DNA of 63,766 bases, the filler included, from Lama guanicoe (taxonomy: Eukaryota): the NCBI GenBank assembly GCA_013239625.1. It is 76 parts of 75 records of this genome, joined end to end, with 100 filler letters (N's around TTAATTAATTAA, not from the genome) between each part and the next. Parts side by side here need not be neighbours in the genome. Positions count along the whole stretch, not along the records: positions 50,339 to 50,984 come from MU054983.1; 75 more parts are not named here. The stretch is one strand, 5' to 3'. Each line of letters begins with the position of its first letter. The stretch's first letter is position 1. Positions 4,154 to 57,619 of this stretch are shown piece by piece. The position numbers were made by a program, and so were the translations under genes. The notes beneath the pieces were generated by a model. That model was not told where the DNA came from and made no database searches. It saw only the letters and a program-made list of their open reading frames with translations.

Positions 4154-4954
4154 AGGGAATACAAAGTTTCTTGTCATTTGCCAACTCCACTCGATACATA
4201 TACATATGGGGAGGAACAAGTTCCAACTCGGCATTATAGAGCAAACCGTAGGAATTTCAAACCGGCACTAGGATACAGACTGAGAAACCAGAGTAAGTGT
4301 TTCTCCTGCAACACATTCCCTTTGTGCTGGATGAATGAACGTCTGTTCACATGCTCAGTTNNNNNNNNNNNNNNNNNNNNNNNNNNNNNNNNNNNNNNNN
4401 NNNNNNNNTTTCTTTTCAGTTGCAAACTCCACTCCATACATATATATGGGGAGGAACAAGCTTCAACATTGTTTCACAGTGCAAACCTCAGGAACTTCAA
4501 ACCGGCACTAGGAAACAGACTGAGAAACCAGAGTAAGAGTTTCTCCTGCAACCCTTTCCCTTTTTGCTGGATGAACGAACATCTCACCATATGCTCAGTT
4601 CTGAGAGATAAGTGTGTGTGAAAGCCGTCCTTCACCTAGCTTGAAGGGAACACAAAGTTTCTTTTCAGTTGCAAACTCCACTCCATACATATATATGGGC
4701 AGGTACAAACTCCAACTCGGCTTTACAGTGAAAACGGCAGGCACTTCAAACCGGCACTAGGAAACAGACTGAGAAACCAGAGTAAGGGTTTCTCCTGCAA
4801 ACCGTTCCCTTTGTGCTGGATGAACGAACGTCTCTCCACATTCTCAGTTCTGAGAGATAAATGTGTCTGAAAGCCATCCTTCAGCTAGCTTGAAGGGAAT
4901 ACAAATTTCTTGTCATTTGCCAACTCCACTCGATGCATATATATGGGGAGGAAC
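4154..4954 (+). repeat. ~249-bp tandem satellite
   Basis: TCTT(T/G)TCA(G/T)TTGC.AACTCCACTC recurs at 4411, 4660 and 4908 (periods 249, 248). Confidence 0.93.
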
Positions 4955-11196: not shown

Positions 11197-12089
11197 CTCT
11201 ATATAGTTTATACTGTGTTCTACATTCTATATTCTAAATTCTATAATCAGCTTTCTGTATTCTAGATTGTAAATTATGTGTTCTACATTCTATATTCTAA
11301 ATTCTATATTCAGTATTATGTAATCTATATTCCAAATTCTGTGTTCTGCATAGCATGTTCTTTATACTGGATTCTATATTCTGTATTCTACATTCTATAT
11401 TCTGTGTTCTACATTCTATATTCTAAACTCTATATTNNNNNNNNNNNNNNNNNNNNNNNNNNNNNNNNNNNNNNNNTATTCTAAATTGTATATTCAGTAT
11501 TGTGTATTCTATATTCTAAATTCTGAGTTCTGGTTTCCATGTTCCAAAATCAGGCTTCAATGTTCTCTAAGCTATACTTTTTATTTTGATTTCTACATTC
11601 TATATTCTAAATTATATATTCAGTATTATGTATTTTATATTCTATATTCTGTGTTCTACATTCAATTTTTTAATTGTTTATTGTGTATTTTCTATTCTAT
11701 ATTCTAAATTCTGTGTTCCGCATTCCATGATTTAAATTCTGTGTTCTATATTCTCTTTTCTATATTCTATATTATGTGTTCTACGTTCTATGTTGTAAAT
11801 TCTATATTCAGCATTCTGTATTCTATATTCTAAATTTTGTGTTCTACATTGTATATTCTATATTCTATATTCAGTATTATGTATTCTATAGTCTAAATTC
11901 TGTTTTCTGCATTCCATGTTCTAAATTCTGTGTTCTAAATTCTCTCTTCTACATTCTAAATTCTGTGTTTTGTATTCTATATTCTAAATGCTATATTTAG
12001 TATTCTGTGTTCTATATTGTAAATTCTGTGTTCTACATTATATATTCTAAATTCTAGATTAAGTATTCTGTATGTTATAGTCTAAAATC
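11197..12089 (-). repeat. AT-rich 7-bp-periodic satellite (reverse orientation)
   Basis: (TTCTATA)n variants; GCATTCCATG at 11720 and 11909 (189 bp = 27x7). Confidence 0.93.
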
Positions 12090-24539: not shown

Positions 24540-26090
24540 AGCATGTGGAGAGACGTTCATTGATCCAGCACTAAAGAAACGGTTTGATAAGGAAACACTT
24601 ACTCTGGGATCTCAGTCTGTCTCCTAGTGCTGGTTGTAATTTCTTGCACTTTTCACTGTAAAACCAGGTTGGAGCTTGAACTTCCCAATGTATATGTATG
24701 TAGTGGGTGGAAAACTGAAATNNNNNNNNNNNNNNNNNNNNNNNNNNNNNNNNNNNNNNNNNNNNNNNNNNNNNNNNNNNNNNNNNNNNNNNNNNNNNNN
24801 NNNNNNNNNNNNNNNNNNNNNNNNNNNNNNNNNNNNNNNNNNNNNNNNNNNNNNNNNNNNNNNNNNNNNNNNNNNNNNNNNNNNNNNNNNNNNNNNNNNN
24901 NNNNNNNNNNNNNNNNNNNNNNNNNNNNNNNNNNNNNNNNNNNNNNNNNNNNNNNNNNNNNNNNNNNNNNNNNNNNNNNNNNNNNNNNNNNNNNNNNNNN
25001 NNNNNNNNNNNNNNNNNNNNNNNNNNNNNNNNNNNNNNNNNNNNNNNNNNNNNNNNNNNNNNNNNNNNNNNNNNNNNNNNNNNNNNNNNNNNNNNNNNNN
25101 NNNNNNNNNNNNNNNNNNNNNNNNNNNNNNNNNNNNNNNNNNNNNNNNNNNNNNNNNNNNNNNNNNNNNNNNNNNNNNNNNNNNNNNNNNNNNNNNNNNN
25201 NNNNNNNNNNNNNNNNNNNNNNNNNNNNNNNNNNNNNNNNNNNNNNNNNNNNNNNNNNNNNNNNNNNNNNNNNNNNNNNNNNNNNNNNNNNNNNNNNNNN
25301 NNNNNNNNNNNNNNNNNNNNNNNNNNNNNNNNNNNNNNNNNNNNNNNNNNNNNNNNNNNNNNNNNNNNNNNNNNNNNNNNNNNNNNNNNNNNNNNNNNNN
25401 NNNNNNNNNNNNNNNNNNNNNNNNNNNNNNNNNNNNNNNNNNNNNNNNNNNNNNNNNNNNNNNNNNNNNNNNNNNNNNNNNNNNNNNNNNCCTAGGTGAA
25501 GGACAGCTTTAACAAACACTTATCGCTCAGAAGTGAGCATGTGGAGAAAGGTTCTTTGATCCAGCACTAAAAGAACGGGATGTAAGAGAAACACATACAC
25601 TGGGTTCTCAGTCTGTTTCCTAGTGCCGGTTTGAAGTGCCTGCAGTTTTCCCTGTAAAACTGATTTGGACATTTACCACCCTTTATATATGTATGTATTG
25701 TTTTAGCAACTAAAAAGAAACTTTGTGTTCTCTTCAAGCTAGGTGAAGGACAGCTTTAACAAACACTTATCGCGCAGAAGTGAGCATGTGGAGAGACATT
25801 TGTTTATCCAGCACAAAGTGAACGGGTTGCAGAAGAAAATATTACTTTGGTTTCTCAGTCTATTTCCTTGTGCCGGTGTTAATTTCCTGCAGTTTTCCCT
25901 GTAAAACTGATTTGGACATTTACCACCCTTTATATATGTATGTATTGTTTTAGCAACTAAAAAGAAACTTTGTGTTCTCTTCAAGCTAGGTGAAGGACAG
26001 CTTTCACAAGCACTTATGCCTCAGAACTTAGTATGTTGAGGGACGTTCTTTGATACAGCACTGAAAGAATGGGTTGAAAGTGAAACACTT
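24540..26090 (-). repeat. ~247-bp variant of the 249-bp satellite (reverse orientation)
   Basis: CTAGGTGAAGGACAGCTTT at 25492, 25739 and 25986 (period 247); TTTCTCAGTCTGTTTCCTAGTGCCGGTTTGAAGT is the reverse complement of the family core. Confidence 0.92.
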
Positions 26091-36012: not shown

Positions 36013-36936
36013 GGCAGCCTCTGTCCCTGGGACTTCCTGCAAATCCCCCTAGCATTTCCTGACATAGAGACATTAGGAAAACCCTCAGGGGAGACGAGCG
36101 TAGGCATTCAGTTAGAACCGACACGCTGCCGACCGTTGGTGGAACCTCCCCACGCTCAGGATTCCGGAACCATTGTCAATGCGTGGGGGAGCTCGAGAGA
36201 CAACTCCACGCAGCTCTCTTCAGACACANNNNNNNNNNNNNNNNNNNNNNNNNNNNNNNNNNNNNNNNNNNNNNNNNNNNNNNNNNNNNNNNNNNNNNNN
36301 NNNNNNNNNNNNNNNNNNNNNNNNNNNNNNNNNNNNNNNNNNNNNNNNNNNNNNNNNNNNNNNNNNNNNNNNNNNNNNNNNNNNNNNNCCGACCGTTGGT
36401 GGAACCTCCACACGCTCAGGATTCCGGAACCGTTATCAAGTGCGTGGGGGAGCTCTAGAGACAACTCCACGCAGCTCTCTTCAGTCACAGGTGTTCCCTG
36501 TTCTGGGAAGTCCGAGAAATACCTTCCCTGATCTTGGGATGGCAGCCTCTGTCCCTGGGAATGGCTGCAAACGCCCCTAGCATTCCCCGGCACAGAGACA
36601 TTAGGAAAACACTCAGGAAAGACGAGCTTAGGCATTCCGTTAGAACACACGCGCAGCCGACCGTTGGTAGAACCTCCCCACGCTCAGGATTCCGGAACCG
36701 TTATCAAGTGCGTGGGGGAGCTCTAGAGACAACTCCACGCAGCTCTCTTCAGTTACAGGTGTTCCCTGTTCGGGGAAGTCCGAGAAATACCTTCCCTGAT
36801 CTTGGGATGGCAGCCTCTGTCCCTGGGAATGGCTGCAAACGCCCCTAGCATTCCCCGGCACAGAGACATTAGGAAAACACTCAGGAAAGACGAGCTTAGG
36901 CATTCCGTTAGAACACACGCGCAGCCGACCGTTGGT
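36013..36936 (+). repeat. ~267/268-bp satellite; near-identical 268-bp variant monomers at 36389-36936
   Basis: GACCGTTGGT at 36391, 36659 and 36927 (period 268). Confidence 0.95.
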
Positions 36937-41537: not shown

Positions 41538-42673
41538 AGACAACTCCACGCAGCTCTCTTAAGTCACAGTTGTTCCCTGTTAGGGGGAATTCGGAGAAAT
41601 ACATTCCCTGACCTTGGGGAGGCAGCCTCTGTCACTGGGATTTCCTGCAAACCACCCTAAAATTCCCTGGCACAGAGACATTAGGAAAAAACCCAGGGGA
41701 GTCGAGCTTAGGCATTTTGTTAGAACCCATGCGCTGCTGACCGTTGGGGGAACCTCCCCACGCTCAGGATTCCGGAACCATAGTCAGTACGTGGGGGAGC
41801 TTGAGAGACAAATCCACGCTGGTCTCTTCATTCACATGTGTTCCCTGAACGGGGAAGCCCGAGAAATAACTTCCCTGACCTTGCGGAGGCAGGCTCTGTC
41901 AATGGGATTGCCTGCAAAACCCCTAGCATTCCCTGGCACAGAGGCATTAGGAAAAAACCCAGGGAGATGAGCATAGGCATTCCATTAGAACCCACGCGCT
42001 GCCGAACGTTGGTGGAACCTCCCCACGCTCAGAATTCCGGAACCATTCTCAGTGCGTGGAGAGCTCGAGAGACAACTCCACGCAGCTCTCTTAAGTCACA
42101 GGTGTGCCCTGTTAGGGGGAATTCTGAGAAATACCATCCCTGACCTTGGGGAGGCAGCCTCTGTCACTGGGATTGCCTGCAAACACCCTAGCATTCCCTG
42201 GCACAGTGACATTTGGATAAAAACCAGGGGAGACGAGCTTAGGCATTCCGTTAGAACCCAAGGGCTGCCGACCGTTGGTGGAACCTCCACACGCTCAGGA
42301 TTCCGGGACCATAGTTAGTGCGTGGGGAGCTCGAGAGACAATTCCACGCAGATCTCTTCAGTCACAGGTGTTCCCTNNNNNNNNNNNNNNNNNNNNNNNN
42401 NNNNNNNNNNNNNNNNNNNNNNNNNNNNNNNNNNNNNNNNNNNNNNNNNNNNNNNNNNNNNNNNNNNNNNNNNNNNNNNNNNNNNNNNNNNNNNNNNNNN
42501 NNNNNNNNNNNNNNNNNNNNNNNNNNNNNNNNNNNNNNNNNNNNNNNNNNNNNNNNNNNNNNCGTTGGTGGAACCTCCCCACGCTCAGGATTCCGGAACC
42601 ATTGTCAGTGCGTGGGGGACCTCCAGATACAACTCCACGCAGCTCTCTTCAGTCACAGGTGTTCCCTGTTAGG
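41538..42673 (+). repeat. ~267-bp satellite (GGAAAAAACCCAGGG variant)
   Basis: About three monomers with the family motifs. Confidence 0.93.
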
Positions 42674-49845: not shown

Positions 49846-50238
49846 GCCGGCACACGTGGTGCGGACAATCACGACATCATGCCTCAGGATCCTTACCTGA
49901 TGTACCAGAGGTTGCTCTAGGGCGGCCCCTCGTCGCACGCCTGCCCGCGGACCATGTCGGAGACCGTGTCCCCCTCCGCCGCCATCACCGTCGCCTTCGC
50001 CGCCGCCGCCGCCGCCACCACAACCGCCGCTGCCGCTACCATGGAAACCGACGCGGACGCCACCGGCGCCGCCAACGCTCTGGGCTGGCCCCTCCGCGGC
50101 CGCCGCTCGGAAGCCGCCGCTCAGGCTGAGGAGGGACAGCGGCGCTCAGAAGAGCCCCGGGCCGCTGGGAACGACTGCCGCCTCCCTGCCTGCCTGATAA
50201 AGGGGCGGGCCGGCGGCCGGGCCAAGGGCGTGGCGTGG
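49846..50238 (-). promoter_or_regulatory. CpG-island promoter and probable first exon on the minus strand, with a GCC/GGC repeat
   Basis: GC box GGGGCGGG at 50202-50209, KLF-type GGGCGTGG at 50226-50233, GGC-rich leader, consensus donor CAG|GTAAGG (exon ends at 49897). Confidence 0.6.
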
Positions 50239-50383
50239 NNNNNNNNNNNNNNNNNNNNNNNNNNNNNNNNNNNNNNNNNNNNTTAATTAATTAANNNNNN
50301 NNNNNNNNNNNNNNNNNNNNNNNNNNNNNNNNNNNNNNTCTTGCTTCTGATGTACCTGCCTCCCTTTCTCTCATCTTGCCTAG

Positions 50384-50984
50384 ATATGGTTTCAAAACCG
50401 GAGAGCTCGGCACCCAGAGCAGAGCAGAGGGGCGCCTGTCAAGGCCCGGGCAGAAGACCCCGATGCCAGACCAGCCCCGACTGTCTAATCGGACCAAAGG
50501 CCCCCGCCCAACATCCACAACGGTGCTCATCAATTGCCTCCAACTGATCCACTGGACAGCTTCCAGTTCCTTGCCACAGCAGCCGCTCCTCAGTACCCCA
50601 GGTTTTTTGTGCCTTGTACTCCCCCTGGTGGCTGGGTGGGCCAGCCATTGATGCTCCTGGTGCTCCAGCACACCCCGGCTTGGCAGAGAGTTGAGAACCC
50701 TCCACATCTGGGAACAGACCCCAGCGGCACCACAGCAGGGCCGAGTCCAGGAGGGGGTCCCGCACCTGTGCACGCTGCACTCACGCCCTCCGACCACGGA
50801 GGGCCCTGCCCGCACAACAGCCTGCACCCTGGTGCGGTAGCACCCCTTCAGCCTGTCCCCCGCAGCGGTCCTCCACAGACCGGGCAGCATCCGGCTCAAA
50901 CACGCAGCCCCCACGTGGCAATTCTGCAGCCCAAACAGGCCGAGACACGCCTGTGGCAGCAGCAGGCCCCATCGGATCAACTCA
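50384..50984 (+). pseudogene. DUXC: DUXC-like exon (homeodomain-2 helix 3 plus C-terminal region) with an in-frame premature stop
   Basis: Acceptor tccctttctctcatcttgcctag|ATA TGG TTT CAA AAC CGG AGA GCT CGG CAC CCA = IWFQNRRARHP. TAA at 50486-50488, then the same frame stays open and Pro-rich to the scaffold end. DUX family is clear; the DUXC subtype is inferred. Confidence 0.82.
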
Positions 50985-51084
50985 NNNNNNNNNNNNNNNN
51001 NNNNNNNNNNNNNNNNNNNNNNNNNNNNTTAATTAATTAANNNNNNNNNNNNNNNNNNNNNNNNNNNNNNNNNNNNNNNNNNNN

Positions 51085-54057: not shown

Positions 54058-54985
54058 CCAACGGTCGGCAGCGCGTGGGTTCTAAAGGAATGCCTAAGCT
54101 CATCTCTCCTGGGTTTTTCCTAATGTATCTGTGCCAGGGAATGCTAGGGGTGTTTGCTGGCATTCCCAGTGACAGAGGCTGCCTCCCCAAGGTCAGGGAA
54201 GCTATTTCTCAGGATTTCCCCTAACAGGGAACACCTGTGACTGAAGAGAGCTGAGGGGAGTTGACTCTCGAGCTCCCCCACGCACTGGCAATGGTTCTGG
54301 AATCCTGAGCGTGGGGAGGTTCCACCAACGGTCGGCAGCGCGTGGGTTCTAAAGGAATGCCTAAGCTCATCTCTCCTGGGTTTTTCCTAATGTATCTGTG
54401 CCAGGGAATGCTAGGGTGGTTTGCAGGCAATCCCAGTGACAGAGGCTGCCTCCAAATTATCAGGGAAGTTATTTCTCAGACTTCACCATTCAGGGAACAC
54501 CTATGACTGAAGAGAGCTGCATGGAGTTGTCTCTCGAGCTCCCCCACGCACTGGCAATGGTTCTGGAATCCTGAGCGTGGGGAGGTTCCACCATCGGTCG
54601 GCACCGTGTGGGTTCTAACGGAATGCCTAAGCTCGTCTCCCCTGTGTTTTTTCCTAATGTCTCTGTTACAGGGAATGCAAGGGTGGTTTGTAGGAAATCC
54701 CAGTGACAGAGGCTGCCTCCNNNNNNNNNNNNNNNNNNNNNNNNNNNNNNNNNNNNNNNNNNNNNNNNNNNNNNNNNNNNNNNNNNNNNNNNNNNNNNNN
54801 NNNNNNNNNNNNNNNNNNNNNNNNNNNNNNNNNNNNNNNNNNNNNNNNNNNNNNNNNNTGGGTTCTAACGGAATGCCTAAGCTCGTTTGCCCTGGATTTT
54901 TTCCTAACGACTCTGTGCCAGGGAATGCTAGGGGGCTTTGCAGGCAATCCCAGTGACACAGGCTGCCTCCCCAAGGTCAGGGAAG
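54058..54985 (-). repeat. ~266/267-bp satellite variant
   Basis: Tandem monomers sharing CTCATCTCTCCTGGGTTTTTCCTAATGTATC. Confidence 0.93.
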
Positions 54986-56222
54986 NNNNNNNNNNNNNNN
55001 NNNNNNNNNNNNNNNNNNNNNNNNNNNNNTTAATTAATTAANNNNNNNNNNNNNNNNNNNNNNNNNNNNNNNNNNNNNNNNNNNNTATAGCACACATGAA
55101 GCACTTAACACACTGGCACTTAGCTGTGTTCACTATGTGGGGTCGCCCCACTTAGCGTGTGTCAGAGCTGTAAAGGCAGCATTTGTCTTTTGAGGATGCA
55201 CTGGTACCCCTTGAATAGGTTCTGAATTTGATGATTTCCTTTAATCCTTGTAACTCTGTGTGCTATGGGCAGTTATTTTCATGGACAGATGATGAATCTC
55301 AGGGTAAAAAAGACTGTGTAATTTGCCCAAAGTCAGACCATAATTTTGGGTGCAGGGGCCTAGGTTCAGCATGGGCCCCTGGGCCTTCTGCCCTTTCCAT
55401 TCAGCACCAGAGCCAGATGTGGGGTTGGCTGTTTCCCTGCCCAGAATATCCGGCGGGAACCAAGACACAACTGGCCCTGTGCTGCTTGAGCAAAAACTCC
55501 AAAGGAGAGGCAGTTATAAAAGGGATCAACATGAAAACAGACGACAGCAACCTGTCATCAGCTCTGAGAAGGAAAAGAACACGCCTCGCCGTGCAGAGCT
55601 NNNNNNNNNNNNNNNNNNNNNNNNNNNNNNNNNNNNNNNNNNNNTTAATTAATTAANNNNNNNNNNNNNNNNNNNNNNNNNNNNNNNNNNNNNNNNNNNN
55701 TCAGACCATGAGCATCGTGGCCCTGTGTGGAGGGTGGGGTCTTGCATGGTCAGGAAGGCTTTAAGTCCTCTGGTCCTGAAACTGTCCGAAGTGCAGAATT
55801 CCCTTCTCTTATCAACTCACAAAGATTGCCCTCGGGCTCCTTTGGTCCTTAAGCAAGCTTTGTTCCAGCATTGTCCCATCAGGGCTTCAGAGCACTCCAG
55901 AAAACATGCTGGGAAAACAACCAAACAGCAAACTAGAGAAACAAGCAAACAGTCAAGCAATAAATACATTTTAAAAAATGAATAATTAAAATGAAAAATG
56001 GAAACCATGAGTGTGAGTGTGTGTCTGTGTCTGTGTGGGTGGGGGAATGCATTGTGCCTGTGTATACTTATACATACACATGATAATACACTATAGACAT
56101 TGAGATAGATAAATGTATATGAAAATATTTGTGTATAGATTATCAGTCTAATTTTCATCTATTTATCATTTATCTATGGAAATTTTTACCTACTTATCTC
56201 TCAATTTATCTCTGTACCTATC

Positions 56223-56261
<39 letters not shown>

Positions 56262-56273
56262 AATCTATCTATC
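56223..56273. repeat. (ATCT)n tetranucleotide microsatellite in the intron upstream of the DUXC-like exon
   Basis: About 9 perfect ATCT units plus degenerate flanks. Confidence 0.9.
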
Positions 56274-56358
56274 AATTCCTCTATCTCTCTATCTACCTAC
56301 GTATCTGTCTGATATGCCATTTCCTCCATACGGCAGATTTTGTGTGCACTGAATGTGA

Positions 56359-56652
<294 letters not shown>

Positions 56653-56753
56653 TNNNNNNNNNNNNNNNNNNNNNNNNNNNNNNNNNNNNNNNNNNNNTTA
56701 ATTAATTAANNNNNNNNNNNNNNNNNNNNNNNNNNNNNNNNNNNNNNNNNNNN

Positions 56754-57619
56754 ATGGAATGCAGAACACAGAATTTAGAATATCAAATTCAGAATACTGA
56801 ATATAAAATTTAGAATATAGAATGTTGAAAACATAATATAGAATATAAAACACGGAATGCAGAATATAGAACGTACAATATAGAATGTAAACAAAAAATA
56901 TAGAAATGAATAGAGAATATAAAACCCAGAATTAAGAAATGGAGTGCAGTACACAGAATTTAGAATATACAATACAGAAGACTGAATTTAGTTTTTAGAA
57001 TATAGAATGTAGAACACAGAATATAGAATATAGAATACGGAATGCAGTATATGGAATGTAGAATATGGAATGAAGAACACAATGTATAGAATATAGAATA
57101 GAGAATACAGAACCCAGAATTTAGAACACGGATGTAGAACACAAAATTTAGAATATAGAATTCAGAATACTGAATATAGAATTTAGAATATAGAATATAC
57201 AACTCAGAAAATAGAAAAACAGAGAATATAGAAACCAGAATTTAGAAAATGGAATGCAGGACACAGAATTTAGAATATAGAATACAGAAACCTCAATATA
57301 CAATTCAGAATATAGAATGTAGAACACAGCATATAGAATATAGAATAGAGAATATAGAAGCCAAAATTTAGAGCATGTAATGCAGAACACAGAATTTAGA
57401 ATATAGAATAAAGAATACTGAATATTGAATTTAGAATATAGAATGTAGAACACAGAGTTCAGAATATAGAATACGGAATGCAGAATATAGAATTTAGAAT
57501 ATAGAATGTAAAACACAGAATATAGTATATGGAATATGGAATGCAGAATATAGAATACAGAATATAGAACTTAGAACACAGATTATACAATATGGAAAAC
57601 AGAATAGACAACCCAGTAT
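56754..57619 (+). repeat. AT-rich 7-bp-periodic satellite
   Basis: Same units; the GGAATGCAGAACAC block recurs about every 120-190 bp. Confidence 0.93.

Follow-up and report, generated by a model that had tools for sequence, protein, structure and literature searches.

A stop-bearing exon of a DUXC gene lies at positions 50384 to 50984 of the window, the 63,766-nucleotide stretch of Lama guanicoe DNA (assembly GCA_013239625.1) analysed here, and it most likely belongs to a decayed, non-functional, low-copy DUXC paralogue that escaped homogenisation of the array. This copy is a diverged side branch and not a typical array unit. A dead copy is favoured because its depth is low relative to other family members, its sister copies carry two further frameshifts, its sequence has drifted towards A/T and its branch is long. 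The original prediction had offered either a dead array unit or a truncated competitor of the full-length protein; of these, the dead copy is retained, the typical array unit gives way to a side branch, and the competitor is improbable.

The window is composed of 76 pieces of 393-1559 bases each, linked by 44N-TTAATTAATTAA-44N, and this joining linker of 100 bases is artificial and has stops in all six frames. Since the pieces are separate scaffolds, adjacency along the window is meaningless. The scaffold that holds the exon has 646 bases (50339-50984), is isolated and unplaced, and ends at 50984, which is the end of the scaffold and not of the exon. Links between the DUXC exon and its window neighbours at 56402-56556 and 49846-50238 were considered and rejected, as these lie on different scaffolds. 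The scaffold at 49846-50238 (73% G+C, rich in CpG and GCC runs) resembles the 5' end of a gene and is unlinked to the DUXC exon. Satellite makes up many of the 76 pieces: a recurring satellite of ~267 bases is found at 1-829, 36389-36936, 41538-42376 and 54058-54720, another of ~248 bases at 4409-4954 and 25492-26088, and a degenerate 7-base satellite with higher periods of 21, 35 and 63 bases at 2196-2742, 11209-12086 and 56763-57606.

Table 1. Coordinates of the DUXC exon, its parts and its surroundings along the window
Feature	Position	Strand	Basis
Left scaffold linker, artificial	50239..50338	.	Scaffold limits
Intron 3' end (intron within homeobox 2), with polypyrimidine tract; acceptor AG at 50382-50383	50339..50383	+	Sequence; same context before the equivalent exon in L001
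Predicted last coding exon of a DUXC paralogue, 5' 200 codons; scaffold end precedes the activation domain	50384..50984	+	82% identity to P0002 residues 151-350; scaffold limits
End of helix 3 of homeodomain 2 (IWFQNRRARH)	50384..50413	+	Pfam PF00046 positions 46-55; PDB match
Premature TAA at exon codon 35; Pro in dominant copies and Camelus	50486..50488	+	Frame reading, contig depth, Camelus proteins
165 open codons after the stop; contain 18 of 19 window-derived amino-acid changes (stop excluded)	50489..50983	+	Frame, codon comparison
Run of six T; one extra T (frameshift) in sister copies	50603..50608	+	Contigs in X4, X8; frame switch in P0006, P0043
Sole in-frame ATG of the exon piece; start of 204-aa gene models P0045, P0046 of relatives	50651..50653	+	
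Right scaffold linker, artificial	50985..51084	.	Scaffold limits
Open DUXC exon for the initial part of homeodomain 2, AG...GT, phase 0 at its end	56402..56556	+	Different scaffold (55701-56653); not assignable to the same gene copy

The exon opens with IWFQNRRARHP, which begins at 50384 in phase 0 directly after the AG that ends at 50383, and the frame from this point contains only one stop, the TAA at codon 35, after which it is open to 50983. Acceptor, exon start, single stop and 165 open codons had all been described in the original prediction, and the sequence bears them out. The match of IWFQNRRARH to PF00046 is below the Pfam cut-off because the segment is so short, and the best PDB match of the exon start is the second homeodomain (HD2) of DUX4 (E 0.13). 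The 45 bases of intron are all the upstream sequence on the scaffold, from which the homeobox exons are absent; the earlier claim that truncation keeps the homeodomains is unsupported, as the scaffold has no upstream exons. The phase-0 acceptor before IWFQ stands at the same place as in the metagenome contig L001 and the intron lies inside the homeobox, so the copy is not a retrogene. A donor of matching phase (0) ends an HD2 exon at 56556, on another scaffold, and this exon has a best-alignment identity to dromedary of 96%.

L001 is the one relative found among at least 597 pattern matches in the metagenome scan, which is informative on exon layout only; its DUXC sequence has 45% identity and the acceptor context found at 50383. 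At positions 280-2863 this contig, which is host DNA within a metagenome assembly, carries a complete DUXC-like gene in which both homeobox exons are present and the last exon is open; its identity to a reindeer protein is 57-89%. By analogy, the stop of the window copy probably lies in the last exon. In L001 a single open frame extends from IWFQ at the end of HD2 as far as the terminal motif, and the accessible text on cattle terms the equivalent exon, exon 5, the last exon (bioRxiv 10.64898/2026.03.05.709741). The 443-aa dromedary protein has activation motifs that begin at residues 370 (LLDELL) and 409, and the scaffold stops at dromedary residue 350, so the activation domain is outside it. 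The prediction that the stop would remove this domain is upheld, the domain being beyond both stop and scaffold. No in-frame C-terminal activation domain is present here, given the stop at codon 35, the position of the domain off the scaffold and the frameshift of the sister copies within it.

The scaffold exon is identified by its sequence as the last coding exon of camelid DUXC. Without gaps, 163 of 200 residues are identical to dromedary DUXC residues 151-350 (82%), with an E value of 1e-88 within the window, so the likeness is not due to chance. Protein searches were made with a peptide query that has X at the stop position, and matched 32 longer proteins and 6 of similar length. The best matches are dromedary proteins named DUX4-like (78-82%), followed by an alpaca model (70%), so that the top five of the 32 are camelid proteins (70-82%), four of them named DUX4-like; reindeer, whale and buffalo proteins come next with 41-50% identity. 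The supplement of PMC13558733, in its accessible files, classes as DUXC a protein that matches P0040 over the displayed stretch. By these matches the sequence falls with DUXC and not with DUXA, DUXB or another homeobox gene. A non-DUX homeobox gene was considered and rejected on the protein and PDB matches, and the DUXC-like character that had been predicted is confirmed and narrowed to camelid DUXC. In a tree of 111 shared downstream residues, 7 rows of Camelus type are separated from 5 rows that include the window copy and the alpaca models (100/100), which places the window copy in a South American branch apart from Camelus.

Four sequencing runs of 24 (X2, X4, X8 and X10, which represent four organisms and four studies) were compared as assembled contigs at 80% likeness. 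At both 50486 and 50487 the letter is C in the whole depth of X2 (1648.7/1648.7), X8 (1433.1/1433.1) and X10 (5030.6/5030.6) and in 945 of 1010.5 of the depth of X4, which gives 94-100% across the four runs; codon 35 is crossed without gaps in X4 by a contig of 170 bases and depth 879.6. Proline stands at this site in all seven Camelus proteins covering the stretch. The family norm at codon 35 is CCA (Pro). The path from CCA to TAA takes two changes, for which CAA is a possible intermediate that is seen in none of the contigs of the four runs, and the single change from CAA proposed in the original prediction does not agree with a starting codon that reads CCA in all four runs and Pro in Camelus. 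A general loss of DUXC among South American camelids, an idea suggested by the missing full-length alpaca protein, is rejected at this site, where all 4 runs show CCA in the dominant type.

The stop is very probably real and shared. The remainder of X4 (65.5 of 1010.5 depth) has T at the first codon position: the displayed rows include all 11 T>C places and both T>G places of this run, and its count of T>A is zero. The contig of depth 65.5 begins ~27 letters to the left of the codon, as calculated by bin arithmetic, which is under the 31-letter bridging rule. Two alpaca models, P0006 (XP_072796960) and P0043 (XP_072796936), read Ser-Asn across the site in a shifted frame, so their codon is N-A-A, in which the first letter is not fixed. 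The disabling lesion thus extends beyond one assembly, as N-A-A in the two alpaca models and as a first letter T in X4. X2, X8 and X10 yield no stop-bearing contig across the codon, and as contigs drop rare variants this does not mean absence; contigs resembling the subfamily of the window copy are found near the codon in X2 (50339-50469, 2 differences) and in X8.

The dominant DUXC type has a depth of ~600-1000 in three runs and the diverged contigs one of 10-40. The ratio of dominant to subfamily contig depth is ~13 in X4, 23 in X8 and 23-43 in X2, a rough ratio, as depth is not copy number. DUXC is multicopy by this measure, in agreement with the predicted multicopy family, and the window copy is not of the dominant type. 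The depths suggest tens of dominant DUXC copies, within the same limit. All four runs also hold further low-depth DUXC-like contigs, ~80% identical (50344-50749 and 50740-50813), one of which omits 72 bases between 50740 and 50813 in each run; these low-depth contigs are older paralogues besides the dominant and window types. Runs X15-X20, which are RNA or possibly RNA, contain 0.04-0.09 of the query words and give no evidence either way.

The window copy joins P0006 and P0043 in the tree (100/99). Of 13 informative sites, these two models share 12 with the window and none with the dominant type; the 12 include ancestral letters common to camel. Among 72 shifted-frame codons they differ from the window copy at 2 and 4, and among 111 downstream residues at 9-10. 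The T run 50603-50608 is where both models change frame, and an extra T behind 50602 is found in one contig each of X4 and X8. Both also lose frame a second time inside the activation domain, where LLDELL is kept and the final EFQALLDML motif is lost; P0045 (alpaca) and P0046, which are of the other type, keep the whole activation domain. In the annotation of P0006 and P0043 the shifted frame bypasses the stop and regains the DUXC frame at the extra T, which gives 354-aa "uncharacterized proteins", and these gene models are probably artefacts.

P0006, P0043 and P0045 all lie on a 55.6-Mb alpaca contig and all are without homeodomains; no Pfam homeodomain is on record for P0006, and none is found in the sequence of the two alpaca subfamily models. 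Among the 32 and 6 protein matches there is no alpaca or llama protein with an in-frame exon start, and the protein searches and six listed clusters give no full-length South American camelid DUXC. The HD2 exon (56402-56556), used as a query, has 87 matches, cluster representatives only, of which none is named from alpaca or llama. The high-copy South American camelid DUXC family may be collapsed or unannotated.

Changes in the window copy were analysed from 39 of the 91 listed differences to the dominant type (40 rows displayed, with the minority row 50592 A>G dropped); sites 50585, 50592 and 50595 fall in a hole in the dominant contigs and are based on low-depth contigs. The 39 differences touch 35 codons and alter the residue in 24, and the derived state is that of the window copy in 20 of these 24 (stop included), as the dominant type agrees with camel there. 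It carries A/T at 31 of 35 sites that alter G+C (p 3.5e-6), 11 of which are CpG transitions, and appears from this composition to have left a homogenised, G+C-rich pool. The ratio of nonsynonymous to synonymous rates against the dominant type is 0.60 (p 0.13; 25 and 14 changes, with multi-hit codons split by hand), a value that points clearly to neither neutrality nor constraint. The part upstream of the stop holds only 1 of 19 derived residues, where ~3 are expected (p 0.14), and the first 10 codons are without change (p 0.38). This ratio and the upstream sparing fit both a dead copy and a kept N-terminal part, and the A/T drift together with the sister frameshifts would point to release from constraint.

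In the proposed course of events, a single DUXC copy would have departed from the homogenised high-copy pool once the lineage had separated from Camelus, and then gained the stop at codon 35, two changes from CCA. The stop-bearing copy would have duplicated to a few copies while decay continued: substitutions biased towards A/T and many amino-acid changes would have accumulated, and sister copies would have gained two frameshifts. The dominant copies, which have Pro at codon 35, would provide DUXC function. We infer the order of these events, as well as the completeness of the dominant units as genes and the lack of a useful protein from the window copy; if this copy were transcribed and spliced, the product would have ~184 residues without the activation domain. 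Some findings run counter to a dead copy: the additional lesions sit in the sister copies while the scaffold in the window has the stop alone, all lesions are downstream of the stop, which a kept truncated protein also predicts, and the splice acceptor is intact.

These same findings bear on the possibility that the subfamily is expressed as a protein of ~184 aa (dromedary numbering), which would have both homeodomains and no activation domain and would compete with full-length DUXC as DUXA does with DUX4. A stop in the last exon need not lead to junction-dependent decay. The probable last-exon position, the spread of the stop type over a few copies and more than one organism, and the unchanged helix 3 and acceptor agree with such a protein, as does precedent: besides the competition between DUXA and DUX4, a frameshifted DUX4C antagonises DUX4 if overexpressed, in the accessible part of PMC10514451, and C-terminally deleted DUX4 reaches higher levels, in that of PMC4914088. 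However, the sparing of codons 1-34 is not significant, with the p values given above, the copy is outnumbered ~13- to 43-fold in DNA depth, the two alpaca subfamily models lack a Pfam homeodomain, the stop adds ~770 bases of 3' UTR, and the lack of alpaca- or llama-named proteins among the 87 HD2-exon matches also counts against it, weakly, as these are cluster representatives. A competitor would require linked intact homeobox exons, a promoter and expression that outweighs a DNA share of ~2-7%, and is improbable. The same doubt applies to its wider form, an unlikely one, in which a small South American camelid DUXC subfamily common to several species would have a fixed stop after homeodomain 2 and act as a brake that only binds DNA, its homeobox exons selected and its tail decaying. 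A bypass of the stop is less credible still, whether by read-through or by re-initiation at the ATG at 50651, which would give a full-length or an activation-domain-only product, the latter able to titrate p300/CBP. The 165 codons open after the stop could be read in its favour, and overexpression of the DUX4 C-terminus on its own has a dominant-negative effect (PMC4914088, accessible part), but an open frame is expected because this is a young coding-exon relic of 63% G+C, the frame of the sister copies breaks both downstream of the stop and within the activation domain, and 18 derived changes lie in the downstream part.

The remaining explanations concern the scaffold itself. The draft is fragmentary, and the stop could have arisen as an error of sequencing or assembly, as the scaffold is tiny and unplaced, no run contains half of its words (best 0.40) and three of four runs have no contig that bears the window letters across the codon. 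Against this, two adjacent letters must both be wrong, P0006 and P0043 fix the codon as N-A-A, and in X4 a depth of 65.5 out of 1010.5 lacks C,C at 50486-50487 and has T as first letter, which makes an error most improbable. The scaffold could also be a partial duplicate of the last exon alone that was never in a whole gene copy. The homeodomain-less models on the 55.6-Mb alpaca contig agree with this, and sloth has many partial DUXC-like sequences in the available portion of PMC13558733; an open HD2 exon in the same assembly and the retained intron end speak against it, and such an origin is improbable. It differs from a decayed paralogue in history only.

DUXC is an early-embryo gene switch. 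A dead copy carries little weight, as defective units are normal in the DUXC and DUX4 families, and the window copy is most likely ordinary gene-family debris. A high-copy DUXC type open at codon 35, which South American camelids seem to carry, is relevant to genome activation and to embryo production in alpacas and llamas. The diagnostic letters of the subfamily make the idea of a competitor testable; if true, it would mean an independent origin of a DUXA-type brake, with an antagonist born within the activator's own family.

A literature search, whose coverage mostly leaves out subscription journals, found no report of South American camelid DUXC. The nearest described relative is dromedary DUXC (XP_064352192-194, XP_064337769-770; "DUXC_dromedary_chr17" in PMC13558733), which has the same exon with 163 of 200 residues identical and is found, according to the accessible part of that paper, as three tandem units and one single copy. 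In the dromedary copies the frame is open, codon 35 encodes Pro and the activation domain is complete, whereas the window copy carries a stop and falls in the South American branch. Alpaca XP_072796960 and XP_072796936 belong to the same subfamily as the window copy and have N-A-A at the site; unlike it, they have the extra T and the second frameshift and are annotated as uncharacterised in a shifted frame. The antagonists DUXA, DUXBL and DUX4C lack the activation domain, and the predicted product of the window copy would resemble them in having two homeodomains and no C-terminal domain (PMC10514451 for DUXA and DUX4C, accessible part); DUX4 without its last 98 residues does not bind p300/CBP in the passages available from PMC4914088. 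These antagonists are expressed and tested, while the product of the window copy is a predicted one.

Stop-bearing or incomplete copies beside intact multicopy genes, as found here, are described in the accessible portions of several sources. DUXC clusters include a dolphin pseudogene copy and a megabat copy with a stop (PMC3004920), dispersed DUX4 homologues in human, DUX1 and a 389-aa copy on chr21 among them, are without a complete C-terminal domain (PMC13558733), and cattle have a deviant distal unit without expression (bioRxiv 10.64898/2026.03.05.709741). In comparison with these defective copies, the window copy contains an intron and is specific to South American camelids.
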